Source: a virus (lineage: Duplodnaviria; Caudoviricetes). Taken from it: a stretch of 55,751 nucleotides of DNA. Positions 3,835 to 34,769 of the stretch are shown piece after piece. Location: the IMG/VR virus record IMGVR_UViG_3300048888_000044, positions 1-55,751 of that record; one strand, 5' to 3'. A program made the translations under genes and the position numbers. Each line of letters opens with the position of its first letter. The first letter of the stretch is position 1. Below the pieces are notes generated by a model, which saw nothing but the letters and a program-made list of their open reading frames with translations, made no database searches and was not told the DNA's origin.

Positions 3835-4006
3835 AGCCCTCGTCAACGTCTCTTGTGCAACTCGGACACAACTGATCCGCTCCCAGTTTGTCGGCATAGA
3901 CCTCTCGACCGCAACTTGGACAGCAAGACCATTCGTTGTTCGACCGTTCGATGTCACGGTCAGTGACACCTGGAGGAAGATTAGGATTGCCTGGAAGCGA
4001 GTTCAT
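3827..4006 (-). CDS. Small Zn-ribbon protein
   Basis: CPSC...CPSC; NLPPGVT motif. Confidence 0.55.
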   Translation of the reverse strand: MNSLPGNPNLPPGVTDRDIERSNNEWSCCPSCGREVYADKLGADQLCPSCTRDVDEGCE

Positions 4007-4571
4007 TTTCCTCTTTGGTGTGATTGGAGCGATATGTTTCCAAAGCCTGTTCAGAAACATCAACGTAACGCTGATTACTTCCGACATCATGCCCGTTTAA
4101 GACATAGCCTTTAGCGAGTGGAAGTATAAGCATGACAGCACTCGCCAACGCTTCGGCATCGGTGCGGAGTGCTTCAACTAATTCATAAATTGATTTTCCT
4201 CCTGCTTGTTCGTAGGTGGAAACGCCAAACGCTTTCCAAATACGATTCACGATTTCTTTTTCTTCCTCATAATCTTTTTGGAGTTGTTGATTTTCCTCTC
4301 TTAATTGGGTATTCTCAGCACTTAATAATCTCGCTGTGCTTTGCGAAGCAGATAATTCACTTGCTGGAACATCTTGTCTTTGACATGTGGATAGTTCAAA
4401 AACTAATTGAGATACTTCTAATTGAAGTGCTTTAGTTTCCTCTCGCGCATACTCCTGGCAGGCGGTTCGGATTATATTACTTTCTTCTTCGCACATCTCG
4501 TATTTGGCGAGCATGGCTACTGTATTCTGTATGATTTCCTCCAACCTGTCGTTTGTGTTTGTGGTGGTCAT
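3981..4571 (-). CDS. Coiled-coil hypothetical protein (AT-rich)
   Basis: 196 aa ORF, heptad-like pattern. Confidence 0.6.
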   Translation of the reverse strand: MTTTNTNDRLEEIIQNTVAMLAKYEMCEEESNIIRTACQEYAREETKALQLEVSQLVFELSTCQRQDVPASELSASQSTARLLSAENTQLREENQQLQKDYEEEKEIVNRIWKAFGVSTYEQAGGKSIYELVEALRTDAEALASAVMLILPLAKGYVLNGHDVGSNQRYVDVSEQALETYRSNHTKEENELASRQS

Positions 4572-4576
4572 TTGAT

Positions 4577-4972
4577 TTAGTCGTTAAAACCGTGCTCGAC
4601 AATTCTCTGCGCGTCTTCGTTTTCTTGCGCGAGAAGTTCCGCGTCTTTTCTGCGACTCATATGGAGTGCAGCGTGAACATCATCCACCCAATAAAACATT
4701 CCGTTTTTCGGCTCAAATGCGAGATATTGTAGTCCATGCCCTTGAGCCTTTCCGTTTTCAATTAACCATGCGCTTCGTGTTGCCATATTTTCTCCTTGTA
4801 ACAGTTTCCTATATTTCTCAAACCCTTTTCTCAATATCGCTTGCCTGTGTTCGCGCAGTCCCGCCATTGAACATTCTTGCTCAACGTCGTGAATGAGTTT
4901 TTCCAGTTGTGGGGTCATTTCGTTTTCCTCCAAATCATCACAATATAAAATATCATCGTTCTGGTTAGACAT
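4577..4972 (-). CDS. Hypothetical protein
   Basis: 131 aa ORF in operon. Confidence 0.55.
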   Translation of the reverse strand: MSNQNDDILYCDDLEENEMTPQLEKLIHDVEQECSMAGLREHRQAILRKGFEKYRKLLQGENMATRSAWLIENGKAQGHGLQYLAFEPKNGMFYWVDDVHAALHMSRRKDAELLAQENEDAQRIVEHGFND

Positions 4973-5042
4973 CCTAGTAGGAACGCAATTAGAATTTGTA
5001 AGTTAGTTCTCATTTGATTTGATCGCGGGCGTTGAAAGAGTT

Positions 5043-22100: not shown

Positions 22101-23724
22101 TACCAGCGCCAAACTCGAAGCGGCAAGAGCACGCATCGAGGAACTGAAGACTACCCGTGACTACGCCCGGGAACTGATTCAACCCAAGTTGGAACCGGAA
22201 GCGCGTAAATTGCTTGGGATCTCACTCCGCTACCTTGAAAAGGAAGCCGAGTACAAACAGAAGCTCGCTGAAGGTGATTTCTCGAAACAGACGCGGCAGC
22301 CGGTTGAACTGAATGCCAACGCTCAGGCAGCCAAAGCTCGCTTTGAAGAGGCCAAGATGAATTGGCGGCGTGGACTGGAAGTCAATCGGATGGCCAACCG
22401 CAGCACGACGGTCAAAGTGGCTGACGCCATTGCCAAGTGGAAGCGTACTGCTGTGCTGCTGTGGCCGACTTCACTCCTGAAGCTCACGGCCGCGGCGGCG
22501 GAAGGCATTGGGATCGGCACCGCAGAAGAAATTATTGGAACTCCTTACGCTCGATTGCTTCCAGAATCGGTCACGTCCAAGGCCGCGCGTTACGGGGAAG
22601 GACTGAAAATTTCAAACGAGGTCAAGGCTTACTCGGACACTTGGTCGAAGCTCATCAAAAACTTCGATTCTGCTCTGAGGACTGGCAACATCGAAACTGA
22701 CCTGTTGCACGGCAAACCGGACATCGTTCCCAAGTCGATGCTGGATTGGATCGGGAACCTTCACTACGCGCTCAAAACGCCGTTGAAGCAATTCGAGTTC
22801 AGCAGGTCACTTCCAATTCTGATGGAACACGCTCGAAGGAATGGCGTGGACATCACCGATCCAGGAGTCATTCAGAGACTCGGAAACGAAGCGTACCGAA
22901 TTGCTGAAGAGAGATTGTTCCTTGAACCAAACGTTTTGACCGACATGTACCAGCGTGCCTTGCAACGGGCGATGGAACCGGAGAAGACCACCGGCAAACC
23001 CACGTTCACCGGCAAGGCTGTGGAGACCCTGTTGCGTTACGAGTTGCCGATCGTGCGTATCCCAACCAACCTGGTGAAGCGGGCCTTCGAGTATTCTTTC
23101 GGCACCTTCACCGGTTCGGCGCGTCTCGCTCGCGCGTTCATGCAAGGAATCGACAACCTGCAACCGGCCGAAGCAGACGCCATCCTTAGAAACTTACGTC
23201 GTGGAACTCTTGGAAGCATGTTTCTGCTCTACGGATTTCTCCACCCGGAACAATTCGGCGGCTACTACCAGGAACGGGAGAAGCGAAGTCCGAACGACGT
23301 GAAGTATGGTGGTGCTCGGATCGGTGGAGTTGATGTTCCAACGGTTGTTCTACATCATCCATTGCTGGAGCAACCCCAAATTGGAGCCACAATGCGGCGA
23401 GTTGCGGATTCTGTATTGCACCGTCGGGACACCGACTTGGGCAAGCTCTCTGCCGGCGCATGGGCGGCGTTGATGGGATTGACCGACGAAGCGCCATTCG
23501 CGCGAGAGATCAAGGATACGGTGAAGAACCTTGGCCAGCCGGAGAAGTTCGTTGGCGAACAGATCAAGTCAGCGATTCCTGGGGCGGTACAATTCACCGC
23601 TCAAGAGCTCGACAAGGACGCTCATGGGAATGTGATTCGACGCAAGCCGAAGACCGTCAAGGAACACATTGAGATGGGAATTCCTGTAATGCGGAAGAAC
23701 GTCCCGGTCAACCCCCGGCCTTGA
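19120..23724 (+). CDS. Large internal virion / ejectosome-like protein
   Basis: 1534 aa, coiled-coil rich, last gene of virion operon. Confidence 0.65.
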   Translation: MPSFDESLLEPVGFNEDLLEPADEPRPSSSRFVDPLSVQPFSPEEESKLSQAVDIARIRQRHAGTPTEPGIIPLIQSGMHSLDEFIQPTPEPVAPSELAKAEEQSTTLNDMVNRIRLKEKIQAIEQPVETGLKQSVVGGVEAMRKPSGLLTLGGAAVAPEFVLPALAATTVPQIPDTIKEIQEARRTGDRAGYYKGVGDLLQEAAVVGGSVKGMRGRGTVETARPAAFDEAKMEPLPTEAAAKPDEEAQPKISMVDIATKSEKFPEEFLSNQGPSGEKLSSPVFSKEWVRSISDELKDPEAWIKLTKAVQKNDINQTLSSKQIGYVLREQGDASIPQLKAAVEAKKMIESHVKELMAKGDEQSMSEAMQYMGSAQLPSETVEAAVRSGKTDQFYSDSKFPPIELTPEDTSFDYIASVKNRPKQPQAEPAVGKEPNASSITSPAEVHGDVREQPVEGEQAVPVKEGVSGVRPNTPEGTAEAKVGEQQNVLPSLTPVPIGPGAATPSEFLPEKAQLIRTAFKQTNQRREQRGLKPVTTPDEESGKQVWEHAKKLIEDDPTVEDRLIKEITNTGVPVNWADLNTQDALLRHRYVDLNNDLEKAKNRMFEAEDAGDPVALREHQLRFSSILQDLDELDLANKMIGTQLGRGMQARQNWVNQDFSLVKMLGDKRASLGRKLTPDEEAKVAKEQKDLQAKEDTAKIAVAKADAEARAKDSNQTMMELGDTVRKETAQETSRGVERDLVGEQREVTGNLKDRFMEQGDLVGSNQAIRKLMELLYRQGITERVPMEQAVHDILTKQVDPTLTLEETQDLMYGYGKYKPLSKDPIKAGVRDIVGQGQQVRKLLDFFKGEAPKKTGFERRIPSDIERNWIKVVNEAKKAFGTIPTDPAAALKSALDSINTRLKNRLLDLQQEVATRQKIVRERNPSPYNEETIRLRNEIEEVKKQHAEIFGKPALTDAQRLAIAEKSADRQIEELERQLKSGEIFPKTKEPSSLTSAKLEAARARIEELKTTRDYARELIQPKLEPEARKLLGISLRYLEKEAEYKQKLAEGDFSKQTRQPVELNANAQAAKARFEEAKMNWRRGLEVNRMANRSTTVKVADAIAKWKRTAVLLWPTSLLKLTAAAAEGIGIGTAEEIIGTPYARLLPESVTSKAARYGEGLKISNEVKAYSDTWSKLIKNFDSALRTGNIETDLLHGKPDIVPKSMLDWIGNLHYALKTPLKQFEFSRSLPILMEHARRNGVDITDPGVIQRLGNEAYRIAEERLFLEPNVLTDMYQRALQRAMEPEKTTGKPTFTGKAVETLLRYELPIVRIPTNLVKRAFEYSFGTFTGSARLARAFMQGIDNLQPAEADAILRNLRRGTLGSMFLLYGFLHPEQFGGYYQEREKRSPNDVKYGGARIGGVDVPTVVLHHPLLEQPQIGATMRRVADSVLHRRDTDLGKLSAGAWAALMGLTDEAPFAREIKDTVKNLGQPEKFVGEQIKSAIPGAVQFTAQELDKDAHGNVIRRKPKTVKEHIEMGIPVMRKNVPVNPRP
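20423..20596 (+). CDS. Nested +1-frame basic protein, DUF3008-like (57 aa)
   Basis: GGAAAGGA upstream; MPAVSQAQQKFMAM...REFAQTPRKGLPKRK. Confidence 0.65.
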   Translation: MPAVSQAQQKFMAMCANNPSKANKPCPSKKVSREFAQTPRKGLPKRKSGNNKMYFHH

Positions 23725-24430
23725 ACCGCGCCACTAGCCACCCAAAACGCTCGGTGCCGGTTTCAATCACTTCCCAAAAACTGTTACCAACAATGGAGTT
23801 TGCGGTTCTGTTGTGTTTACAGTGCCGAACGTCATCAAGCACCAACACAAACGGCGACTTCACAAGTTTCATCAGGTAGGTGAACTCCAGGAAACCCAAG
23901 TGTCCGGCGCTGTCGAGCAACACGAGGTCAGGTCTGAATCCGAAGGCACCCAGAGCGACCCACAACAATTTGTCCGGTCCTTCCGTCTCCTGCTCCTTCA
24001 TATAAAGAGCCGCACGAACTTCTTTCGGATGATCGAAGTAAATTCCCGGGGTTTCATCATCGACGAACTGTTTCTGAATCTCGTCACGCGTCGGCAGGTT
24101 GGATCGGGGGATACTCAGTCCGTGTAGACAGACTACTTCCGGGTTGTTCCGGTAATGCGCGGAAGCAACCTTCCAATAGGTGTACTGCGCCTCGATGGTG
24201 ACGAAGGTGAAGTCGGGACCGTTGCTTTTCAGAGCATCATGCAACACGCGAGTCGTGCCGTTTCCCAGGTAGGTGCCGGTCTCGATCACGTTGCGCGGTT
24301 TGAACCGGGCGACCGTGCGGCGAATGGCGTCCTCGAATTCTCCGTGCTCAGGGGGACTGATAGTCATTCCAACGTTCACCAGAGGATTTGTTTCTACGTC
24401 CATCGACTCGAAAGTTTTTTGACCGTTCAT
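23708..24430 (-). CDS. Class I SAM-dependent methyltransferase-like
   Basis: VIETGTYLGNGTT, LVLLDS, LVLDD. Confidence 0.7.
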   Translation of the reverse strand: MNGQKTFESMDVETNPLVNVGMTISPPEHGEFEDAIRRTVARFKPRNVIETGTYLGNGTTRVLHDALKSNGPDFTFVTIEAQYTYWKVASAHYRNNPEVVCLHGLSIPRSNLPTRDEIQKQFVDDETPGIYFDHPKEVRAALYMKEQETEGPDKLLWVALGAFGFRPDLVLLDSAGHLGFLEFTYLMKLVKSPFVLVLDDVRHCKHNRTANSIVGNSFWEVIETGTERFGWLVARFKAGG

Positions 24431-24585
24431 TCCAAGAAATCTCTATGGCGTTAGCACCCTCAGTCAGCATGCCATTTACAATCACATTCAGTTGAGTGGC
24501 TACAACCTCCATGTTTTCTAGGTGAGAGGAAGTACAGACAATTTTCCTTTGTTGGATGAGCACAATTTGTTCGGGCATAATTTTT

Positions 24586-24840
24586 TCACAGAGGTTTATG
24601 GCAATGGGGGCAAACAAACATTTCCCGTGGAAGATTCAAGAATGCACGCAATTCGTCTTCAGCCATCTTGCCGAAGTTCCAATATTTTCGGCATTCTCCG
24701 CTTATCACTAATTTACGAAGTCGTCTTGTGTTCAATCTTCCATCTACCGTGAAGCACTGAGAATTGGCTATAAAATTCTGACAGCGCACACTCAATTTAT
24801 TCACCAAATCCGACCTCCCTTGACTGTGTGACATACTCAT
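24586..24840 (-). CDS. RNA polymerase alpha-CTD-like protein with C-terminal CxxC
   Basis: LSVRCQN...NFGKMAEDELRAFL...CPHC. Confidence 0.5.
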   Translation of the reverse strand: MSMSHSQGRSDLVNKLSVRCQNFIANSQCFTVDGRLNTRRLRKLVISGECRKYWNFGKMAEDELRAFLNLPREMFVCPHCHKPL

Positions 24841-24889
24841 AACTAAATTTTTACTTGCAAGTGTCGATTCAATGCAAGACAAATAGTGA

Positions 24890-25075
24890 ATGCCAGTAGC
24901 CGAGAGTCGAACATACACCCGCAAACGCGATGGGAAGAGCCGCACGCAGTTCACGGTTTGGATTCTCGACGAGCTGTTGCCGGCGCTGCAAAAGGTGTCC
25001 GCTGACACGGGCAAGGCACAAACCAAGGTGCTCGCCGAGTTCGGAGAGGCCAGATTGAGGAGGGTGAAGGTATGA
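24890..25075 (+). CDS. Small DNA-binding protein (RHH-like)
   Basis: Basic N-terminus, beta strand QFTVWI then two helices. Confidence 0.45.
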   Translation: MPVAESRTYTRKRDGKSRTQFTVWILDELLPALQKVSADTGKAQTKVLAEFGEARLRRVKV

Positions 25076-25084
25076 AACGCAAAA

Positions 25085-25175
25085 TTCTAACGCCAAAGCT
25101 GAGCCGGGACGCTCGAATGAGGACGAATGACTAAACCAACGTGCCAGCGGCCTTGGCTCCAGCGTCTGGTTAGGT
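25085..25175 (-). other. attC-like site 1
   Basis: Minus strand ACCTAAC-CAGAC-GCTGGAGC...GCTCAGC-TTTGGC-GTTAGAA. Confidence 0.9.
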
Positions 25176-25448
25176 GCATTCAGTTGGGGCACTCTCCAAA
25201 TAAAGAGTCTTGTGCTTCAGGATTTCCAAGTCCGACAGGGCAAGAAACTGCGTGGCAGCGTTCAAAGATAATGGCAAAGGAAACAGCCAAACATTGTCGA
25301 AGAGCAATTTGGTGTGCGAATCTTTCTTTTTTAGCGTTTCGTATTCACTTAAAAGATACTGCCAAGACTTCCATTTATCGGTTGGTGGTTCGTGCCCGTG
25401 AGATGGTGACGGCTTTTCGACGCAAATCAGTAAGTGTGGGGTGTTCAT
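25170..25448 (-). CDS. Cassette 1 gene (canonical orientation), hypothetical
   Basis: ATG shortly after GTTAGGT; stop TAA inside ACCTAAC of attC1. Confidence 0.7.
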   Translation of the reverse strand: MNTPHLLICVEKPSPSHGHEPPTDKWKSWQYLLSEYETLKKKDSHTKLLFDNVWLFPLPLSLNAATQFLALSDLEILKHKTLYLESAPTECT

Positions 25449-25464
25449 ATTGTGAAGGGAATGC

Positions 25465-25601
25465 ACCTAACGACCGAAGCTCACCCGCGACGCTGAAGGA
25501 AAAGGAGATTCATGAAAAAGAATAAAACCGATATGAAAAAGAATAAAACCGATGGTCTAACCTCAACGCCAGCGGCGTCGCGGTGCAGCGCATGGTTAGA
25601 C
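25465..25601 (-). other. attC-like site 2
   Basis: GTCTAAC-CATGC-GCTGCACC...GGTGAGC...GTTAGGT; loop holds a 21-nt tandem duplication. Confidence 0.88.
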
Positions 25602-25904
25602 ATCATGCCGAAGCTGTTTACTCTCCAACATCTTTCTCGTCTTCTCTTCCTCGTCAGACAGCCAATTTGGTGGAGTTTGAAGGGCAGCCAGTTTATTCTT
25701 CAATGCCGTATTATCTTTCATAAGTCGCTCTATCGTTTTTATCTGTGTCGCAAGTGTGTCGTCTTGTTTGTCAGCGCGCGCCTGGTACGCTTCCGCCTCT
25801 TCCAAGCCGAGCGAAAGCTGATTGCGCAATATGGCCGTGACTGGCGGCTTCGTGTGTTCAACAATGAGTGCGTCGAGTCTTTGAAGATGTTCGATAAGAT
25901 TCAT
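25596..25904 (-). CDS. Cassette 2 gene (canonical orientation), coiled-coil protein
   Basis: ATG about 15 nt after GTT; stop TAA inside GTCTAAC of attC2. Confidence 0.75.
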   Translation of the reverse strand: MNLIEHLQRLDALIVEHTKPPVTAILRNQLSLGLEEAEAYQARADKQDDTLATQIKTIERLMKDNTALKNKLAALQTPPNWLSDEEEKTRKMLESKQLRHDV

Positions 25905-25912
25905 ACGATGAT

Positions 25913-26002
25913 GTCTAACCCCGGAACTCAGCGACCCGGCGACCAGACGAAGGACTCACCCTCAACGCCCAAGCCGGGTTCGTTGGAGTGACCTGGTTAG
26001 AA
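25913..26002 (-). other. attC-like site 3 (probable founding site of array 1)
   Basis: Plus strand GTCTAAC...ACTCAGCGACCCGGC / GCCGGGTTCGTTGGAGT...GTTAGAA. Confidence 0.85.
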
Positions 26003-26004
26003 TT

Positions 26005-26295
26005 ATGATCTCCCCTCGCCAACTCTTCCTAAAACAGCCGTTCGCATCGAACGTTCAGAACTTTATCGTGCAAGACCAGTTTCAGGCGGCACTGGCCTAC
26101 GCGTTGGCGGACATGGCCACCAGCAGCGCCATCAGCGCCGATCAATTGTCCGGGGCCAAGCTGTTCATCGCGCACCTGAACGTCATCGGGGAACGCATCG
26201 AGGAAGAAAAGTCCGTCGAGTTGCCAACCCTGAGCCAGCCTGATCCACAGCAAATGCAACGCTTGAAAGAGCAACAGAAGAAGGGTAACAAGTAA
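26005..26295 (+). CDS. Hypothetical protein preceding scaffold
   Basis: 96 aa ORF, 2 nt before scaffold ATG. Confidence 0.7.
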   Translation: MISPRQLFLKQPFASNVQNFIVQDQFQAALAYALADMATSSAISADQLSGAKLFIAHLNVIGERIEEEKSVELPTLSQPDPQQMQRLKEQQKKGNK

Positions 26296-26297
26296 TT

Positions 26298-27527
26298 ATG
26301 CCAGCCTCACTCGAAGCCCCTCCAGCACCAGCTCAAACCACTCCAGCACCAGCGCCGTCGCCGACACCACCATCTCAGCCGGTGACGATGCCATCTCCGC
26401 AACCGGCCTCGACCGCTCCGGACCCGGACAAGTTTTTCGACACCCTGGACGACGCTCCCAAGCCACCCGAGCCAAAGCCTGCCTCGACGGAGGCCACCAA
26501 GCCCGATCCCAAGACTCCGGCAAAACCGGGTGAACCCAAGCCTGGAACTGAACCAGCCAAGCCGGCCGGCGAGAAGCCGGAACAGTTCAAGAGCCCGAAG
26601 GAACTGCGCCAGGCGTACGATCGCACGTCGAACGAACTGAAGGCCAAGAACGCCGAGGTGGTGCGCCTGCTGCAACAGCTTGAGACAGCCAAGGCTGGCG
26701 TACAGCCAAACACGACCGAGATAGCGGCACTCACCGAACGGCTGGCGCGACGCGAGAAGGAGTTCTCCGAGTTGGAATCCGAGCTCAAGGTCATCCGTTA
26801 CGAGAAGTCTCCTGAGTACAAGGCCAAATTCCTTGAACCTTTCAACGCGGCGACGAAACGAGCGCATGATGCGGTCAGCCAGTTGGTGATCACCGCCGAG
26901 AACAAGCAGACTGGAGAAAAGTCCGAACGCCGGGCGACCGTGGCCGATTTCAACGCTGTGGCAAGTCTTCCCGAGGGAGCCGCTTGGCAGAAGGCCAGGG
27001 CCATATTCGGCGAGGACGCGCACCTCGTCATGCGCCACTACAACAAGTTGAGTGAGATCGCCGAACAATCACAGGTCGAGATCGAGCGTTACCAGAAGGA
27101 AGCCGCGGACAGGGAGAAGACCGACGTGGCGCGCAGTGCCACTGAACGACAGGCGGCAGAGGCAATGTCACGCAAGGCCGATGAAGGCTGGCAGAAACGA
27201 AGCAAGTGGTTTGCTCCAGTCGAGGGTGACGACGAAGGAAATGCCCTGTTGAAAACCGGGTTTGAACGCGTGGACGCTGACACTGGAGCATTGACTCCGG
27301 CACAACGCATCATCCAGCAGAGTTACGTGCGCCACGCGGCGGCGGCGTATCCCAGGTTGAAGGCCAAGGTGACGGCCTACGAGACGCGCATTGCGGATTT
27401 GGAAGCTAAGCTCAAAGAGTTCGAGAATTCCGAACCTGGACCATCGCGAACGACTCCAGGACTGAAACCCGACAAGGGGATCGCTGAAGATGCCATGACC
27501 GATCCGAAAGCTCCGTGGAACCAATAA
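26298..27527 (+). CDS. Putative capsid scaffolding protein
   Basis: Pro/Ala/Lys-rich N-terminus then long coiled coils. Confidence 0.6.
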   Translation: MPASLEAPPAPAQTTPAPAPSPTPPSQPVTMPSPQPASTAPDPDKFFDTLDDAPKPPEPKPASTEATKPDPKTPAKPGEPKPGTEPAKPAGEKPEQFKSPKELRQAYDRTSNELKAKNAEVVRLLQQLETAKAGVQPNTTEIAALTERLARREKEFSELESELKVIRYEKSPEYKAKFLEPFNAATKRAHDAVSQLVITAENKQTGEKSERRATVADFNAVASLPEGAAWQKARAIFGEDAHLVMRHYNKLSEIAEQSQVEIERYQKEAADREKTDVARSATERQAAEAMSRKADEGWQKRSKWFAPVEGDDEGNALLKTGFERVDADTGALTPAQRIIQQSYVRHAAAAYPRLKAKVTAYETRIADLEAKLKEFENSEPGPSRTTPGLKPDKGIAEDAMTDPKAPWNQ

Positions 27528-27531
27528 CCCC

Positions 27532-27559
27532 TTGACACACGGCAAGGATTTTGTAATGT
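27532..27559 (+). promoter_or_regulatory. Sigma70-type promoter
   Basis: TTGACA-N16-TAATGT directly before HTH gene (probably leaderless). Confidence 0.65.
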
Positions 27560-27817
27560 GTGTCGATGTCACGTTCAAAAGGCCATCGCACGGGTGAGAT
27601 AGAGGGAATTCGGGTTCGTCCGAGTCTGCAACTGCTGAACATCATCAGCGCGTATCCCACGACCAACGCCGCAGCCAAATTTCTTGGTCTCGCCTATTCG
27701 ACGCTCGACAGTTTCATCAATCACGAGGGAGGAATCAGCCTCGACAACGCCGCGCAGATCATCACGCGGACGGGGTTGAGTTACGAACAACTGTTCAAGC
27801 ACAAGAAGGAGAAGTGA
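27560..27817 (+). CDS. Cro/CI-type HTH regulator
   Basis: NAAAKFLGLAYSTLDSFIN...ISLD...YEQLF. Confidence 0.75.
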   Translation: MSMSRSKGHRTGEIEGIRVRPSLQLLNIISAYPTTNAAAKFLGLAYSTLDSFINHEGGISLDNAAQIITRTGLSYEQLFKHKKEK

Positions 27818-28374
27818 GCGACAAACAGAAATACGGACGAGAGGTTGCTCTAAAGGTGGCTGAAGACCTTCAATCCCGACTCAAGCTGGCGTGCCGTAGA
27901 ATGGCTGTGGCTGGATCACTGCGTCGAGGAAAAGAAACCGTTGGAGATGTTGAGCTGCTTTTTGTGCCAGTGCTGGCGGAACGGGCCGATGGACTGTTTG
28001 ACCGCCGCTTGGTGTCCGTGGCGGACGAAGTGTGCAACGAACTGTTGCGCGACGGAATTCTAGCGAAACGCCCAAACGTCAAAGGTCACTTTACGTGGGG
28101 CGAGGCAAACAAGCTGGCGGTGCATGTTGCAAGCGGAGTGCCGGTGGACTTCTTTTCCACGACCGAAGACAACTGGTGGGTGAGTCTGGTGATTCGCACT
28201 GGCAGCAAGGAAACCAACCTGAAGCTGACCAACGGAGCCATTCACCTTGGCAGGAAATTACACGCTTACGGATCGGGAGTTACGATGCCGGACGGAAGCA
28301 CTCGAAAAGCCCAAAGCGAACAGGAAGTTTTTGAACTGTGCGGAGTCCCTTACCTTGAACCGAAAGACCGATAA
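27814..28374 (+). CDS. Minimal family X DNA polymerase
   Basis: AGSLRRGKETVGDVELL, VDFF, RTGS, SEQEVFE..G.PY.EP..R. Confidence 0.9.
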   Translation: MSDKQKYGREVALKVAEDLQSRLKLACRRMAVAGSLRRGKETVGDVELLFVPVLAERADGLFDRRLVSVADEVCNELLRDGILAKRPNVKGHFTWGEANKLAVHVASGVPVDFFSTTEDNWWVSLVIRTGSKETNLKLTNGAIHLGRKLHAYGSGVTMPDGSTRKAQSEQEVFELCGVPYLEPKDR

Positions 28375-28376
28375 AC

Positions 28377-29489
28377 ATGACCACCCAACTATCCAAACCG
28401 AACACCATCGAGTCGATGCTGGCGTCGCCTCAGATACGTCAACGCTTCAACGAGATGCTCGGGCAACGCGCGCCGCAGTTCATTTCGTCGATTATCACCG
28501 TTTACCGTGGATTTTCTTCCCCGGTAGATCCGGCGAGCGTCATTGCCAGCGCCGCCATCGCCGCCACCCTGGACCTTCCGATCGAGAAGAACCTTGGTTT
28601 CGCGCACATCGTTCCTTACGCGGGCGTGGCTCAATTTCAAATGGGAGCGAAAGGACTGACCCAGTTGGCTCTTCGCAGCAATCAGTATTCGGGGATGAAC
28701 GCCGTGGCCATCAATGCGGAGTGCTTCGGTGGGTACGACAACATTGGAGATCCGATCATTCGTTGGGACTTGCTTGACGAGACCAAGGAAGCGATTGGGT
28801 ACGTGTTCGCGTGGCGTCTGACTAGCGGATTTTCAAAGACGGTTTACTGGCCCAAAGCGAAGGTGGTTGCTCACGCTGAACGATTCAGCCAGGCGTACAA
28901 GAAAAAGAAGGCTGACAGTCCGTGGATGAACAACTTTGACGCAATGGCCCTGAAAACTGTGATAGCAAACTCACTGCGACGGTGGGGTATTTTGAGCGTT
29001 CAGATGCAAACCGCGTTCAAATACGACCAGGCGATCATCAAGAACATCGACGCCGAACCGCAGTACGAGGACGATATCCCGTTCGGTCCGGCGACGACCT
29101 CCAAACTGATTTCAGGCGGGAAGAAAACCCGCAAGCAGGAGCCTCAGGAACCGACTGAGCCTGAGCAACCAATTTCCGGCGAGGGTTCTGACGAGTCCAC
29201 CGCCGGCACTCCCGCGCCCATCGCCCCTGGTTCTCCAGATCAGCTCAATGGGCCGGGAGTTGTTCCTTTGGAGCACGGTGACAGTGAGGACGCCAACGAG
29301 GTCATTCGCATCATCATGGCCAACGCGCGTGAGCTGGGAATCGAGGAAAAGTTGCTGATGATGTGGTCCAAGGCGGCGAAACTGGCTTCTGAAAAACAGA
29401 GTCAACTGAGCGACCTGGCGACGCACAAGCTCAAGAAAATCTGCGAACAATGGCCGGCCGTGGTGAAGGAGATTACCGGGAAGTCATAA
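28377..29489 (+). CDS. recT: RecT-family ssDNA annealing protein
   Basis: AATLDLPI..NLGFAHIVPY..AQFQMG.KG..QLALRS, FDAMALKTV; stop is the TAA of attC4. Confidence 0.92.
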   Translation: MTTQLSKPNTIESMLASPQIRQRFNEMLGQRAPQFISSIITVYRGFSSPVDPASVIASAAIAATLDLPIEKNLGFAHIVPYAGVAQFQMGAKGLTQLALRSNQYSGMNAVAINAECFGGYDNIGDPIIRWDLLDETKEAIGYVFAWRLTSGFSKTVYWPKAKVVAHAERFSQAYKKKKADSPWMNNFDAMALKTVIANSLRRWGILSVQMQTAFKYDQAIIKNIDAEPQYEDDIPFGPATTSKLISGGKKTRKQEPQEPTEPEQPISGEGSDESTAGTPAPIAPGSPDQLNGPGVVPLEHGDSEDANEVIRIIMANARELGIEEKLLMMWSKAAKLASEKQSQLSDLATHKLKKICEQWPAVVKEITGKS

Positions 29490-29571
29490 CGACAAGCTGA
29501 GGCACGGCGGAGAAAACCAATGACCATGAAAAGCGAACAATCCCGCCGTTGCCTCCAGCGACTGGTTCGAG
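29484..29571 (-). other. attC-like site 4
   Basis: CTCGAAC-CAGTC-GCTGGAGG-CAACGGCGG / CCGCCGTG-CCTCAGC-TTGTC-GTTATGA. Confidence 0.9.
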
Positions 29572-29953
29572 GACATTCGTGTATCCCGTCGAAGCCAATC
29601 ACTCCACCGTCCTCGGCTACGGAGCAACCTCAAAAGCTGGAAAACCAATGTGGGCGGCGCTGGTGTGGGCTGGCGCACGCAAGGACGGCGGCGCACACAT
29701 GATGAATCCGACCGGAGGCGAATACCTGCACGTCCGCGTGAAGCCTCTGACGGACGGCTGCTGGTATCGCGTCCGCTGCTCCCACTCCCGCGGAAACAGA
29801 TGGCGTGGCGGCGTCGTGGAAAATGTCGAAGTAAAACAAAAACGGGGCAAGTGGCACTGGCACGTCACTGTGTCCTCGAACGTAGAGGTGAGCGGTCAGA
29901 GTGGGCGCGATAAGGCGTCCGCCTGCAAGCCGGACTCAATGCGCCCACTCTGA
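29549..29953 (+). CDS. Cassette A gene, hypothetical
   Basis: Frame open from attC4 into attC5; start uncertain. Confidence 0.5.
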   Translation: MPPATGSRTFVYPVEANHSTVLGYGATSKAGKPMWAALVWAGARKDGGAHMMNPTGGEYLHVRVKPLTDGCWYRVRCSHSRGNRWRGGVVENVEVKQKRGKWHWHVTVSSNVEVSGQSGRDKASACKPDSMRPL

Positions 29954-29976
29954 TTCGCTCGACCGATTTGTTAGAC
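29875..29976 (-). other. attC-like site 5
   Basis: Arms TCAGAGTGGGCGC / GCGCCCACTCTGA with extrahelical bases. Confidence 0.92.
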
Positions 29977-29984
29977 GACGATTT

Positions 29985-30236
29985 ATGAAACAAGACAACC
30001 AATGGCATGACGGAATCGTGTATCAGCACTCTGATGATGGCAAATTCGTGCTCGCTGAAAACTTAGAGGAAGCTGACAAAGACAATCGCCCGATGACGAT
30101 GGAAGGGGGAGGCGTGAAATACCAAGACGTGAAATACAACTGGAATCGCGGACAGCCAATCGTGGACTTCGGCGATTTCAAAATGGTCATCACAGACATC
30201 GGGTTCGTAAAACTGGACGAAACGCAAGTCGTCTAA
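29985..30236 (+). CDS. Cassette B gene, hypothetical
   Basis: ATG just after GTTAGAC; stop in GTCTAAC. Confidence 0.7.
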   Translation: MKQDNQWHDGIVYQHSDDGKFVLAENLEEADKDNRPMTMEGGGVKYQDVKYNWNRGQPIVDFGDFKMVITDIGFVKLDETQVV

Positions 30237-30338
30237 CGAAAAGCTGACGCACAGCCGCGATTAACTATGAGCACGAAATTAACCTGTGACGCTGGACTGC
30301 AACAGACCCCGGCTGTTGCGTCCGGCGTCTTGTTAGCA
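30231..30338 (-). other. attC-like site 6
   Basis: GCTGACGCACAGCCG / CGGCTGTTGCGTCCGGC arms flanked by AAC and GTT. Confidence 0.9.
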
Positions 30339-30617
30339 CCCAAAACCCTCGAAGAACTCATAAACCAAGCCGCCGAAGTGCTGCCTGACTGGTGGGAGAT
30401 ACGAATCGAAGTGCAGCAAGGATACGGGCAAGCAATCGTGACGCGGCCAGACGGCACGGAAGTGCAAATGTCCGATGGCGAGAACGACATCCGAGAACAG
30501 TTTCGTGATGCGCTGGGTCTGGTGCGTGATGAACTGGAAGCAGACAAACTCTTGGGTGCTAACGACAAGCTCAGAGATGGCGCGACAGAGAGGCGTCCAT
30601 ATTCACAGGAAACGTAA
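30267..30617 (+). CDS. Cassette C gene, hypothetical
   Basis: Starts in attC6 loop, ends in attC7 loop. Confidence 0.7.
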   Translation: MSTKLTCDAGLQQTPAVASGVLLAPKTLEELINQAAEVLPDWWEIRIEVQQGYGQAIVTRPDGTEVQMSDGENDIREQFRDALGLVRDELEADKLLGANDKLRDGATERRPYSQET

Positions 30618-30648
30618 TCGCGCCATTCTCTGAAGCGCATGGTTAGAG
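30557..30648 (-). other. attC-like site 7
   Basis: GCTCAGAGATGGCGCGA / TCGCGCCATTCTCTGAAGC arms. Confidence 0.92.
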
Positions 30649-30661
30649 CACGTCAAATACA

Positions 30662-30976
30662 ATGAAAACACTGACACCAGGACACAAATACGAACTCGAA
30701 AACTTCGAGGCCAAAGACCAACCCGGTCAGGTCATCCAGTTCATCGAGAAAACTCCAGTCGCCGGCGAACCCGGCAAACTGGTCACACTCAACGACGGCA
30801 CGACCAACGAGGAAGTGCTCAAGATGCTGATAGACCGCTGCCAGTCTCTCTACGACAAATTCCCGTCGGAGGAAACGGCGTGCTCCATCAGCCATCTCAA
30901 ATCGGCGCTATACGCGCAACAGTCCCGGACATACGAACGCTCTCAACGCGGCGTCGAAGGGAAGCACCTCAAGTGA
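30662..30976 (+). CDS. Cassette D gene: Tad1/Acb2-like anti-defence sponge
   Basis: H.Y...IQF...GTTNEEVL..LIDR...F.SEETAC.I.HL..AL....RT.ER..RGVEG matches the Tad1 pattern. Confidence 0.7.
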   Translation: MKTLTPGHKYELENFEAKDQPGQVIQFIEKTPVAGEPGKLVTLNDGTTNEEVLKMLIDRCQSLYDKFPSEETACSISHLKSALYAQQSRTYERSQRGVEGKHLK

Positions 30977-31001
30977 CAACCGAGCACGGGGAGACTAAGT
31001 G

Positions 31002-31127
31002 CTCTAACGCAGAAGTGAGCGGACAGCCGCCGAGTGCGACTCGCAATGACACCAAAAATCTATGAGCAAAAATAACGAATCGAAACGGAAAAGCGGGGCG
31101 GCTGTTCGCTCCACTGACGGGTTAGGC
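31002..31127 (-). other. attC-like site 8
   Basis: AGTGAGCGGACAGCCGCC / GGCGGCTGTTCGCTCCACT arms. Confidence 0.9.
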
Positions 31128-31325
31128 ATCGGCACAATCCACGACCCAAAAGCTATGTTCCTCCGCAACTACGTCGGGGAAGCAACGTGCGGAAAACTCA
31201 AATACGAAATTAGCACTGGAATGAACGGCTCGCCAATCGTCCACAGCAAGAAATCCGGCAAGTGGTTCTCGCTATCATGGCAAGACATTCTGGCGCTCGC
31301 GGAGAAGGCAGGCGTAGATGCCTAA
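31062..31325 (+). CDS. Cassette E gene, hypothetical
   Basis: Starts in attC8 loop; stop in GCCTAAC. Confidence 0.7.
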   Translation: MSKNNESKRKSGAAVRSTDGLGIGTIHDPKAMFLRNYVGEATCGKLKYEISTGMNGSPIVHSKKSGKWFSLSWQDILALAEKAGVDA

Positions 31326-31444
31326 CGCAGAAGTCAGCGACAGCCGCCGAGAGAAACCATGAACGACACTCTGACATTGGAACAGCCAGCAACGCCTCGA
31401 AACGGAGAGCGGGGCGGCTGTTCGTCTGCACTGATTGGTTCGGC
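31320..31444 (-). other. attC-like site 9
   Basis: AGTCAGCGACAGCCGCC / GGCGGCTGTTCGTCTGCACT; similar to attC8. Confidence 0.9.
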
Positions 31445-32048
31445 ATTTCGGTGTGTCGTAGCTGACCCTCCGTGGCTGCCAACGATGGCACTGGTGAATA
31501 GTCCTGCCAGCGGTATCGGTGCACCGAAGGCAAGTCCGCAACGCCACTACCCGACGATGAGCGTCGAGGAAATCTGCGCCCTGAATCCGCCGTCTGCCAC
31601 TCAATCTCACCTCTGGCTCTGGTGTCTGAATCAGCACACGGATTGGGGTCACACCGTCGCAAAGGCGTGGGGCTTTGAAGTGTTCCAGATGGTGACGTGG
31701 TGCAAACCCGGCCTCGGAACTGGCCGATTCCAATGCAACAGCGAGCAAGTGCTACTCTGCCGGAAAGGAACTCGCCACGGCAATCCGTTCGGGATGACCG
31801 GCGGCACATACTTCAACTGGCCGCGTGGCCGACACTCTGAAAAGCCGGATTCATTCTACGACCTCGTGGAGCGAGTATCACCTGGCCCGCGTCTGGAAAT
31901 GTTCGCTCGCACCCGCAGACTCGGCTGGTCTGCATGGGGCAACGAAATCTCCAGCGACGTAGAAATGCCGAACGCAGAGTCCAGCTATCGGAGTGGGCCG
32001 GTAGCGGCGTCGAATAAACCGGCGGCTCAATCGGCCCACTCCGATTAG
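31359..32048 (+). CDS. Cassette F gene: MT-A70-family adenine methyltransferase
   Basis: ADPPW, HLWLW, HSEKP, RLEMFAR, GWSAWGNE. Confidence 0.9.
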   Translation: MNDTLTLEQPATPRNGERGGCSSALIGSAFRCVVADPPWLPTMALVNSPASGIGAPKASPQRHYPTMSVEEICALNPPSATQSHLWLWCLNQHTDWGHTVAKAWGFEVFQMVTWCKPGLGTGRFQCNSEQVLLCRKGTRHGNPFGMTGGTYFNWPRGRHSEKPDSFYDLVERVSPGPRLEMFARTRRLGWSAWGNEISSDVEMPNAESSYRSGPVAASNKPAAQSAHSD

Positions 32049-32067
32049 CTGCGACGATTGGTTAGCT
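31967..32067 (-). other. attC-like site 10
   Basis: GTCCAGCTATCGGAGTGGGCCG / CGGCCCACTCCGATTAGCTGCGAC with two extrahelical bases. Confidence 0.93.
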
Positions 32068-32074
32068 GCTTTTT

Positions 32075-32503
32075 ATGGGAATGTTTGACGACATCAAGTG
32101 CAAGTATCCGCTGACGGTGGAAGGTGCGAACGCGCTCGCCTACCAGACGAAGGACACCGACGCGCAGCAACTCGACAACTACGAGATTCGAGAGGACGGA
32201 ACGCTGTGGCACGAGAACTACGATCCTCGATTTGAGGAGCACAAAGAAGCGCCTCTCGGCTTCTACATCCACCGCGACAACCTGAGATGGGAGCAAGTGC
32301 CCATAACTGGCGAAGTCCGATTCTACACGATGTATGGCGTCAAAGACGGGCAACTGGTGAACGCCAACGCCCGTGACGGCTGGCTGGAATGGTCGGCCTA
32401 CTTCGCGGACGGAAAACTCAATCAAATTCACCTGCTCGAAAACCGAGCGCCAGATGCAGCTAACGATGAGTTCAGGCGCACAGACCCGCCGTTGAAACCA
32501 TGA
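32075..32503 (+). CDS. Cassette G gene, phage-type hypothetical
   Basis: MGMFD...QTKD...Y.I.EDG.L...TG.VRFY...F.DG.L; stop in attC11 loop. Confidence 0.8.
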   Translation: MGMFDDIKCKYPLTVEGANALAYQTKDTDAQQLDNYEIREDGTLWHENYDPRFEEHKEAPLGFYIHRDNLRWEQVPITGEVRFYTMYGVKDGQLVNANARDGWLEWSAYFADGKLNQIHLLENRAPDAANDEFRRTDPPLKP

Positions 32504-32592
32504 CGCCACTCGAACAATCCAAGCCTGCCGACGAAGCCCGCGACTCTGTGCTGCGAAGCGGGGCTGTGTCGTCCTGCAACGATTTGTTAGGG
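32458..32592 (-). other. attC-like site 11
   Basis: GTTCAGGCGCACAGACCCGC / GCGGGGCTGTGTCGTCCTGCAAC. Confidence 0.88.
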
Positions 32593-33360
32593 CGCGTTTT
32601 GGTGGCGTGCGAATATAGCGGAACTGTCCGCGATGCGTTCAAACTCAAGGGATGGGATGCTTGGTCGTGTGACTTGCTTCCAACCGATGTTCCTGGACAA
32701 CACCATCAAGGAGACGTGGCAGAACTTCTGAAACAGCAATGGGACATAATCATCGCCTTCCCACCATGCACCTATCTCTGCTCGTCTGGAATGCACTGGA
32801 CTGTGCGAGGCAAGCGCGATCCTCAACTGACGGAAGACGCGCTCAGTTTCGTGCGCTCATTCCTCGATGCTCCCTGTGAACACATCGCGCTCGAAAATCC
32901 AGTCGGCTGCATCTCGACGCGCATCCGAAAACCGGACTGCGTGATTCACCCTTGGCAATTCGGACACCCCGAATCCAAGACAACCTGCCTATGGCTCAAA
33001 AATCTTCCGGCGCTCGTGCCGACAAATATCCTGACAAAGCCAGCAAGCGGCCACTGGGAAAACCAATGCTCAACCGGCTCGCAAAACCGACTAGGGCCAA
33101 GCCCAACCCGGTGGAAGGAACGAAGCAAAACATATCAAGGCATCGCCTCCGCGATGGCCGCACAGTGGAGCGCGTTCGTATTAAATTCGCGCACGACTGC
33201 CAAGAGTGTCCCGATTGCGGAGAACCTTTTTGCTTGGAGTGCCAGGAACACTACGCCGACTGCCGATGTGTCGGGCCAAGCAACGCCGAAGATGATGGAT
33301 GGACGCTCATTGAACGGCGTGGAGTGCTCTACGGCGAACGCAACGCGCCCTAACAAATGA
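32500..33360 (+). CDS. Cassette H gene: C5-cytosine methyltransferase-like
   Basis: VLVACEYSG, SCDL, FPPCTYL, ENPVG, HPWQFGH; ATG supplied by attC11 loop. Confidence 0.8.
   Translation: MTPLEQSKPADEARDSVLRSGAVSSCNDLLGRVLVACEYSGTVRDAFKLKGWDAWSCDLLPTDVPGQHHQGDVAELLKQQWDIIIAFPPCTYLCSSGMHWTVRGKRDPQLTEDALSFVRSFLDAPCEHIALENPVGCISTRIRKPDCVIHPWQFGHPESKTTCLWLKNLPALVPTNILTKPASGHWENQCSTGSQNRLGPSPTRWKERSKTYQGIASAMAAQWSAFVLNSRTTAKSVPIAENLFAWSARNTTPTADVSGQATPKMMDGRSLNGVECSTANATRPNK
33165..33353 (+). CDS. Cassette H second ORF, Cys-rich Zn finger
   Basis: CQECPDCGEPFCLECQEHYADCRC; stop in CCCTAAC. Confidence 0.55.
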   Translation: MERVRIKFAHDCQECPDCGEPFCLECQEHYADCRCVGPSNAEDDGWTLIERRGVLYGERNAP

Positions 33361-33366
33361 TTAGAC
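33348..33366 (-). other. attI-like simple site closing array 2
   Basis: Minus strand GTCTAAT-CATTT-GTTAGGG (L, 5-bp spacer, R); no attC arms. Confidence 0.6.
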
Positions 33367-33369
33367 AAC

Positions 33370-33678
33370 ATGGCGCGCCGAGCAAATAGCCGAAATGTCT
33401 GGTGGCAAAATCACTACGCCAAACTGCGCGCCGCCAAGGAACGCAAGCGTCTTGCCGATCCTGATTTCAGCCAGGAAACGAATCCCCTAGTGCCAATTCC
33501 GCGCCCCAAAGCGCGCTTCCGTATCTTGATTGAGGATCAGCAGGTGGGTGACCGGCTCCAGATCAAACTTTATCCCACTCCCTTCCGCGGCCAGTTTGCG
33601 ACGGGCGATGGGATCCGCAGCGTGCGCCAGCTCGAACGCGCCTTTGGCCATATTTTGAGAACAGCTTTTACCGTATGA
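33370..33678 (+). CDS. Hypothetical basic protein
   Basis: 102 aa, coupled to next gene. Confidence 0.6.
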   Translation: MARRANSRNVWWQNHYAKLRAAKERKRLADPDFSQETNPLVPIPRPKARFRILIEDQQVGDRLQIKLYPTPFRGQFATGDGIRSVRQLERAFGHILRTAFTV

Positions 33679-34769
33679 AAAGAACCCCATTCAGCGCCTC
33701 AAACTTTTCACGCCGTCGTCTCTGCAACGGCAGTCTCCCGATGGAGGACGGGTTGCCCGAGGTCGAGAACGAGTGGTCGGCGGAAGGGACGCTGCTGCAC
33801 CACGCCGCGGCGACACAAGTTCACACGGGTCTCAACCAATATCAGTCAGAAGTGGTTCAGCAAGCACTCGGTCATCGAAATCGGTTCATCGACACTCTCG
33901 CTCCACCAGACCCGGACGACTGGAAATTCTTCTTCGAGATCGAACTGCCGTACACTCTCAAGAACAAGACCGTGTTCCTGAACCACGCGGACTACGTGGC
34001 AGTGTTCCCAAAGGCCGTCGCCATCGTGGACTACAAATTCGGCTACGAGGAAGTCGATGCGCCGGAACTGAACGAGCAACTGGCGGTTTACATTGCCTGC
34101 TTGGCCGAGAAATTTGACGTACCGGAATACTACGGCCTGATAATCCCCAGGTTTGGCAATCCGGCGCCACCGGTGAAGTACACGCGCGCGGAGATTCCTG
34201 CCCTGCGAAAGATGATCGAGGACGTGTACGACGCCTGCACACCGAAGGCACCACGCACGCCTGGGGTGAGGCAGTGTACCTATTGCAAAGGTTTTCAGCT
34301 TGGTTTGTGCAAAGAGGCAATCAGCATGGCGATGAATCCAGTCCACAAGTTCAGCGGAAAGTTGCTTCAGAATCCCGGCCAAGTATTGCAATCACTCCCT
34401 GCGACTGACCGCACCAAACTCTTCGACGCCTTCGCGATGGCCGACAAGTTGCGCAAGACGTTCGTGGCCGCAGTCAAACCGATGATTGAGCGAGATCCTG
34501 AGTTCGTTCCTGGATACCGACTCAGCAAGGAGGGTGAGACAAGAAGCAAGGTTACGGATTTGTTCAGCTTAGAGGAAAGGCTGTGGAAAAAATTGAATTT
34601 GTCCCACGAAGGATTTGTGGCTCACTGCTCTATTTCCAACACGGAATTGAAAGATTTGGTTCGCGAGATTTCGGGCCTAAAAGGCAAAGAGCTGGACGCA
34701 AAGGTTGCTGAGTTGACTAAGGGACTGGTGGATACGACGCCGGTGGAAAGGAGTTTGGAGAGGGTATGA
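33675..34769 (+). CDS. Cas4-like PD-(D/E)XK exonuclease (DUF2800-like)
   Basis: C..S, AEGTLLH, AD, IVDYKFG, N.QL..Y, C..C....C. Confidence 0.8.
   Translation: MKRTPFSASNFSRRRLCNGSLPMEDGLPEVENEWSAEGTLLHHAAATQVHTGLNQYQSEVVQQALGHRNRFIDTLAPPDPDDWKFFFEIELPYTLKNKTVFLNHADYVAVFPKAVAIVDYKFGYEEVDAPELNEQLAVYIACLAEKFDVPEYYGLIIPRFGNPAPPVKYTRAEIPALRKMIEDVYDACTPKAPRTPGVRQCTYCKGFQLGLCKEAISMAMNPVHKFSGKLLQNPGQVLQSLPATDRTKLFDAFAMADKLRKTFVAAVKPMIERDPEFVPGYRLSKEGETRSKVTDLFSLEERLWKKLNLSHEGFVAHCSISNTELKDLVREISGLKGKELDAKVAELTKGLVDTTPVERSLERV

Follow-up and report, generated by a model that had tools for sequence, protein, structure and literature searches.

The phage genome IMGVR_UViG_3300048888_000044, whose whole linear record of 55,751 bp (CheckV completeness estimate, 99%) is the window analysed here, carries a short array of three hairpins bounding two minus-strand open reading frames (ORFs), which we call Array 1, between a small upstream gene and a gene that starts at 26005 (hereafter the 26005 gene). 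This locus raises the question of what the hairpins are, how the array came to lie between two phage genes, and what its loss would mean for the phage, as a first-pass annotation of the sequence had proposed that two gene cassettes sit inside one founding attC, the recombination site of integrons, and that their excision restores a gene fused in frame to the 26005 ORF. Our analysis makes it likely that Array 1 is a 933-bp cluster of attC sites without an integrase (CALIN) placed at an ATGA overlap, that its first entry there was non-canonical, and that the open frame which excision would leave behind is due to chance or is a by-product.

The three hairpins, attC-a, attC-b and attC-c (Table 1), are 91, 137 and 90 nt long, the length range given for attC sites in PMC5371416 being 57-141 nt. 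All of them carry core boxes of the form RYYYAAC...GTTRRRY, namely, TTCTAAC (6/7 positions) and GTTAGGT (7/7) in attC-a, ACCTAAC and GTTAGAC (7/7 each) in attC-b, and GTCTAAC (7/7) and GTTAGAA (6/7) in attC-c; the two deviations, one in attC-a and one in attC-c, are paired outer-flank positions. They also fold as attC sites do: an L stem whose bulged bases lie in the plus-strand 3' arm (T and G in attC-c) stands beside an R pairing and an internal bubble, and the loops vary in size. A degenerate pattern derived from the window's sites matched at least 120 bacterial loci, many of them in Verrucomicrobiota and Planctomycetota, and 80 IMG/VR contigs, and from 34 attCs of 10 bacterial array loci we built a covariance model of sequence plus structure, the anchors of which are partly circular, since the training sites were picked with the window-derived pattern, although the stem pairings are not part of that pattern. 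The model scores all three sites of Array 1 (Table 1) and, over the window as a whole, reports 10 sites, each of them on the plus strand; the seven outside Array 1 fall within 29484-32067. None is reported for the relatives G001 (whole genome) and G002 (a fragment), and one for the distant relative L192. Scans with regular expressions missed degenerate sites that the model found, and the model in turn did not report one regular-expression site at 32460-32590.

In direct comparison, two attCs that lie next to an intI pseudogene in a metagenome-assembled genome (MAG) of Limisphaerales have 77% and 76% identity to attC-c over 78 nt, and for the window's attC at 30557-30648 an attC of a second Verrucomicrobiota MAG gives 87% identity over 91 nt. 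Judged by sequence, attC-a, attC-b and attC-c are true integron-type attC sites, and these likenesses identify their type as that of Verrucomicrobiota integrons. The same identities point to a host that is probably a verrucomicrobial soil bacterium with an integron of its own. No complete integron, that is, intI and attI beside the array, was recognised, as searches of the whole 55.7-kb record for an integron integrase or tyrosine recombinase with TIGR02249 and PF00589 gave 0 matches; because of this result we class Array 1 as a CALIN and not as an integron.

To read the array, its recombining strand has to be known. Where bacterial genomes carry intI close to matches of the pattern, these matches run in the direction of intI in 4 of 4 cases, the mirror of the cassette direction. 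Among 27 inter-attC intervals at bacterial loci, the longest ORF lay opposite the pattern strand in 15 and on the same strand in 1, with 4 ambiguous cases and 7 in which none was clear, and in two bacterial arrays that we inspected the cassette ORFs were opposite the pattern strand. Bulged bases in the plus-strand 3' arm are, by the geometry of attC sites, the arrangement of a bottom strand. This interpretation of the bulge position also rests on PMC5371416. The position of intI, the strand of the cassette ORFs, the attCs that follow relatives of the cassette-2 gene (see below) and the bulges together indicate that the plus strand of the window is the bottom, recombining strand and the minus strand the top one.

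Read along the minus strand, the array thus runs from attC-c to the ORF 25904-25596 followed by attC-b (cassette 2), and then to the ORF 25466-25170 followed by attC-a (cassette 1). Both cassettes start after a G|TT with a flank complementary to their own inverse-core flank, the inner junction pairs (25169-25181 with 25459-25471, and 25594-25606 with 25908-25920) matching at 13 of 13 positions each. The outer flanks, AATTCTAAC at 25083-25091 and GTTAGAATT at 25996-26004, are complementary at 9 of 9 positions, exactly as the first-pass annotation had it, and a repeat finder extends the pairing to 11 of 12 (25080-25091 against 25996-26007); only AATT among the nine bases is informative (about 1 in 256), CTAAC/GTTAG being conserved in the family.

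With the plus strand as the bottom strand, deletion of 25091-25918 is predicted to be the canonical product of an attC-c x attC-a excision, and the endpoints that had been proposed fall exactly at both G|TT crossovers. Such a recombination would delete this segment and leave one attC, and any movement of the cassettes would have to rely on an integron integrase supplied by the host and working on the plus strand in its folded form, the phage having no recombinase of its own. A script confirmed the frame itself: once 25091-25918 is removed, 105 nt (35 codons) run stop-free from ATG 25072 in frame with the 26005 ORF, and the overlap of this ATG with the TGA of the 24890-25075 ORF as ATGA, as well as the nearby GAGGAGG, are present in the sequence as described. 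The three other excisions, in which cassette 1 only or cassette 2 only is lost or the attC-a body is kept, all hit stops.

However, the relatives give no sign that such a frame was ever a gene. G002, a 12.8-kb fragment, has an empty slot reading ...GGTGAAACC-ATGA-TCTC..., in which the upstream stop codon TGA and the ATG of the 26005 homologue overlap, so that the upstream gene is joined to the homologue's own start and not to an extended frame. This empty allele lacks an attC. In G001 (55,865 bp, complete), the slot holds a 54-codon ORF that is ATGA-coupled at both ends, and a contig of run X9 departs from the window at 25075 into G001-like sequence, that is, into a different small ORF in the slot. 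In the distant relative L192 the coupling by ATGA is to a different upstream gene, with no attC at the slot. We considered the 54-codon ORF of G001 as a possible decayed attC and rejected it, its likeness to the remnant being matched by 121 of 500 shuffles.

The protein family tells the same story about the start. All four 26005 homologues that we compared begin with MIS, and the database protein P0011, 84% identical to the 26005 product, also has 96 residues. A family profile search of 1.84 billion representatives yielded 157 members, of which 150 were listed; among the listed members, 149 match within 13 residues of the expected start and so have no N-terminal extension, a check that the first-pass annotation had recommended, and one (P0152) has a 63-residue lead. 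The family alignment found only G001 and G002 again in IMG/VR, and in metagenome contigs 0 of 199 candidate stretches were confirmed. On this comparison ATG 26005 is the real start of the 26005 gene, and, with no N-terminal extension in the family, the fused frame does not restore an ancestral gene.

What remains is whether the open frame could be meaningful without being ancestral. The frame match had been given a chance of one in three, which holds for the phase; with the requirement that the frame be stop-free, the expectation becomes about 7%, since among 171 attC sites of the family 111 of the 513 bottom-strand frames (22%) are stop-free, and 22% x 1/3 gives this figure. It is suggestive, not significant, and the open in-frame link of the remnant is most likely a matter of chance or, at most, a tolerated by-product.

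The model behind the original claim holds that a translated attC at the 5' end of the 26005 gene acts as a landing pad, that the emptied allele makes an extended protein, and that occupancy reversibly tunes the downstream structural genes. It can appeal to the canonical excision product, which is open and in frame, and to ATG 25072, which keeps a strong GAGGAGG and the ATGA, while ATG 26005 has no comparable ribosome-binding site. Moreover, a second array of the window (Array 2) has at least one gene whose start has to lie within an attC loop: the MT-A70 gene (31320-32048; ORF 31359-32048) has its Pfam domain from residue 30, right behind the attC, and since no ATG, GTG or TTG lies between the two, its ORF must start at an ATG in the attC loop. 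ATGA is also found in the plus-strand centre of 7 of 11 window attCs, against 20 of 116 bacterial sites (raw counts). Against these points stand the slots without an attC in G002, G001 and L192, the 149 family members without an extension, and attC-c itself, which has no ATG and whose translation is Arg/Pro-rich, as expected for a GC-rich hairpin that is read through. The predicted frame would cross the entire attC from a start codon that lies outside it, an arrangement found in none of the relatives. No single-attC allele was found in the two relatives G001 and G002 or in the contigs of runs X1, X7, X8 and X9, an exact 42-mer of attC-c had 0 matches in IMG/VR, and no joint across 25091-25918 was seen in the contigs of these four runs, although contigs cannot show absence. 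The filled allele, on the other hand, is present in six runs, which argues that the phage lives with it. We consider this model improbable, and leave only a very small chance for any functional coding landing pad. A broader form of it would have phage attCs adapted as translational couplers through loop starts or ATGA on the recombining strand, so that arrays keep ribosomes flowing, emptying Array 1 would cause read-through into the 26005 protein, and the host integrase would switch the mode of late-gene translation; this form seems to us more improbable still.

The junctions bear directly on how the array arrived. Towards phage DNA they read ATGA|AACGC... and ...GAATT|ATGA, neither of them G|TT, and the array sits exactly in the ATGA stop/start overlap that couples the small upstream gene to the 26005 gene in relatives. 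Given these ATGA junctions and an attC count of three against two ORFs, the first entry does not conform to a canonical attC x attI, attC x attC or attC x attG event; it would rather have occurred at the ATGA via microhomology or by replacement of a small ORF. Two histories fit this picture, namely, a lone attC that was later filled by the host integrase, or a pre-assembled piece or circle that was captured in one step. The anatomy is as expected for two cassettes behind one extra attC, and to that extent the notion of a founding attC stands, but capture in one step fits at least as well. In the latter history there never was a lone attC: a pre-assembled piece of a host array, or an excised circle, entered at the ATGA by illegitimate or microhomology recombination, bringing the tail of one cassette with attC-c, cassette 2, cassette 1 and the head of the next cassette, or alternatively replaced a G001-like small ORF. 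We hold this as a tentative possibility that falls somewhat short of probable. Besides the ATGA junctions, it is favoured by the landfill run X8, in which 25087-25290 and 25475-25863 occur at 100% identity with a different left flank and without phage flanks. There, unrelated sequence before attC-a ends in ATGAAACGC, the nine bases that also come directly after the window's left ATG, with a 6-nt difference. Since ATGAAACGC recurs beside attC-a and cassette 1 in this other context, the left flank is donor cassette DNA and not an old phage start, and the 20-codon ORF at the left end probably represents the end of an ORF from an adjoining cassette. The right-end GAATT-ATGA is shared with G001, and in the metagenome locus L232 an attC much like attC-c comes before a gene related to that of cassette 2. 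However, the two X8 contigs measure only 251 and 389 nt and have low depth, so that the linkage of both cassettes there is at most presumed, the X8 sequence could itself be another phage, and the 11 of 12 outer complementarity needs either donor flanking cassettes with common ends or a circular intermediate. The 30-letter loose end of X8 had 0 matches in IMG/VR. The outer-flank complementarity thus favours a lone attC first or a circle, whereas the donor flank and the GAATT-ATGA shared with G001 favour capture in one step.

The cassette genes are found in other settings as well. For the cassette-2 protein, 9 homologues were found in databases, and relatives are encoded at 21 metagenome loci; an attC stands directly after the stop codon in the gene's own direction at at least 7 of the 21 loci by eye and at 4 of 17 by a stricter script. 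The protein had 0 matches in 401 genomes of the phylum of the MAG G003 and none in IMG/VR. In run X9, the place of attC-c, upstream of the cassette-2 ORF, is taken by a different attC body. The order of a gene cassette, an ORF and then its own attC on the top strand, recurs outside the phage, for cassette 1 on X8 alone, and no homologue of the cassette-1 protein was found. The attC-b loop contains a perfect 21-nt tandem duplication (25512-25553), and in a contig of run X8 the attC arms are the same and the loop differs (70 letters against 78).

One could also suppose that the hairpins are not integron sites, that they belong to a phage-specific cassette system with another recombinase or none, and that the real genes are on the plus strand. 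Overlapping plus-strand ORFs (25072-25134, 25127-25525 and 25512-25991) indeed form a chain from one end of the array to the other, opposite in strand to the cassette genes, and the open frames across both cassettes begin at ATGs in attC loops; for cassette 1 the antisense strand stays open in only 30 of 2000 codon shuffles, and in Array 2 and the IMG/VR locus L152 the genes lie on the pattern strand. Yet the antisense frame of cassette 2 is open in 2000 of 2000 codon shuffles and in 16 of 19 homologues, so that we rejected a meaningful plus-strand frame across this cassette as a consequence of codon composition, and the plus-strand translations are rich in Cys, Trp and Arg. In addition, a model built from bacterial arrays beside intI scores all three sites strongly, and the minus-strand protein of cassette 2 has the homologues and metagenome relatives described above, several of them in canonical cassette contexts. 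We regard this as the least credible of the explanations, and extremely doubtful.

Our preferred reading, an integron-type CALIN with a non-canonical entry at the ATGA and a fortuitous open frame, has to be set against several observations that weigh on the other side. In attC-a and in the consensus of the bacterial family, C is the base that bulges from the presumed bottom strand, while PMC5371416 describes a conserved G. Folding energy alone is weak evidence, with plus-strand z values of -0.7, -0.9 and -2.4 for attC-a, attC-b and attC-c. In Array 2 the ORFs occupy the presumed bottom strand, opposite to the layout of bacterial arrays, and phage arrays may follow other rules. The outer flanks pair at 11 of 12 positions like genuine cassette ends, as a founding attC would predict; the expectation of about 7% may leave selection for read-through conceivable; and attC likeness is the sole basis on which the host is proposed.

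Table 1. Parts of Array 1 and the adjoining phage genes in the window
Feature	Position	Strand	Remarks
Upstream small gene, 61 amino acids	24890-25075	+	TGA overlaps ATG 25072; conserved in G001 and G002
GAGGAGG, Shine-Dalgarno-like	25057-25063	+	Serves the start of the 26005 homologue in relatives
Entire insert as compared with the G002 empty allele, 933 nt	25072-26004		ATGA at each side
20-codon ORF ending at TAA in the attC-a loop	25072-25134	+	Probably the tail of a neighbouring cassette's ORF
attC-a, attC of cassette 1, bottom strand on plus	25085-25175	+	50.5 bits, E 3e-12; outer flank AATTCTAAC
Cassette 1 ORF, 98 amino acids	25170-25466	-	No homologue found
attC-b, attC of cassette 2	25465-25601	+	47.9 bits, E 2e-11
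Cassette 2 ORF, 102 amino acids, coiled-coil	25596-25904	-	Family known in metagenome integron cassettes
attC-c, extra ('founding') attC adjoining the 26005 gene	25913-26002	+	40.8 bits, E 2e-9
Segment that attC-c x attC-a excision would remove, both cassettes, 828 nt	25091-25918		
96-residue gene of a widespread phage protein family of about 90 residues	26005-26295	+	Own ATG is the conserved start

Among the ten genes around Array 1, the only informative Pfam and PHROGs matches were RecT and a nucleotidyltransferase resembling polymerase beta. The gene of the latter (27808-28376) has no counterpart in G001, where the flanking genes are just 12 nt apart. The segment 24368-24832 is a stretch of low guanine-plus-cytosine (GC) content with an ORF of 89 amino acids on the minus strand (24348-24617); it has no match in G001 and no attC was found in it, and G002 carries a different extra ORF near this position. 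The GC minimum of the record is at 4001-5000 (0.42, compared with about 0.55 elsewhere). A scan for promoters and terminators gave a single promoter-like site (24820-24849), the same number as in shuffled sequences, a blastn search of a phage collection returned no match, and an Rfam search of 23500-34000 gave nothing at an E-value of 0.1 or better.

Array 2 (29474-33703, about 4.2 kb) separates RecT from the next gene. Its attCs, seven scored by the model and the regular-expression one at 32460-32590, are all plus-strand sites, and the first of them overlaps the RecT stop codon. Nothing of the array is present in G001, in which RecT and that next gene share a GTGA overlap. The attC at 32458-32592 is 95% identical over 137 nt to sites in two IMG/VR loci (L152, 4566-4700, and L130, 1857-1991), where the copies precede an MT-A70 gene and not the 286-residue gene that follows in the window, and a homologue of the latter gene in L170 has its own ATG, is ATGA-coupled and has no attC. 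In terms of raw counts, an ATG is present in the plus-strand centre of 9 of 11 window, 46 of 116 bacterial and 34 of 67 viral attC sites, and ATGA, besides the window and bacterial counts given above, in 17 of 67 viral ones. The MAG contig whose attC is most like those of the window (L239, G007:C249, 1366-4004) has both flanking ORFs on the pattern strand, as in the phage Array 2 and unlike bacterial arrays, and may be a prophage or phage contig that was binned with the MAG.

Clusters of attC sites without an integrase have been described in phage genomes, DNA methyltransferase cassettes included (Qi et al. 2023, PMC9892861), and the arrays of the window are like them in having attCs and cassettes with no intI near and, in the MT-A70 gene of Array 2, a methyltransferase cassette. 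Set beside that account, features of the present case are the before/after comparison with array-free relatives, the insertion at an ATGA of translational coupling, the nested outer-flank signature and the verrucomicrobial attC type; the terms 'in-frame' and 'start codon' are absent from the main text of that paper. Phage CALINs are thus known already, and the present one is a further member with an unusually clear empty-site comparison. Array 1 likewise resembles the sedentary chromosomal integrons of the Verrucomicrobiota MAGs G003 and G007 in its attC family (76-87% identity, and a shared covariance model) and in its ORF-then-attC cassettes, but it differs from them in lying in a phage without intI, attI or tyrosine recombinase, as an array three sites long, inside a phage operon and antisense to it.

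Integrase-mediated insertion outside att sites has been described at attG (consensus GWT), along with SALINs, single attCs without an integrase (Loot et al., 10.1101/2022.09.11.507474), which accounts for how isolated attCs and small CALINs can come about in genomes that lack an integron platform. However, attC x attG events as described there would have G|TT at both junctions and one attC per cassette, whereas here the junctions are ATGA and three attCs accompany two ORFs. Read-through or loss of an attC that leads to ORF fusions, and translation of the array that shapes downstream expression, are also treated in the literature (PMC4670013, PMC11511950, PMC8876359). The fused cassettes in those sources are from bacterial class 1 arrays with a Pc promoter, while here the downstream gene belongs to a phage and the fusion is predicted only.

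The window thus offers a natural before/after case, with two cassette arrays in one phage that are absent from its relatives and an empty site that is preserved, and it makes an exact and testable prediction for excision by an integrase, the loss of 25091-25918. Read-through, if true, would tie host integron activity to the expression of late phage genes, although the present evidence points to coincidence. It also indicates that integron cassettes of soil hosts of the Verrucomicrobiota type reach phage genomes, and that the first entry of a cassette array into a phage need not be a canonical integrase crossover.

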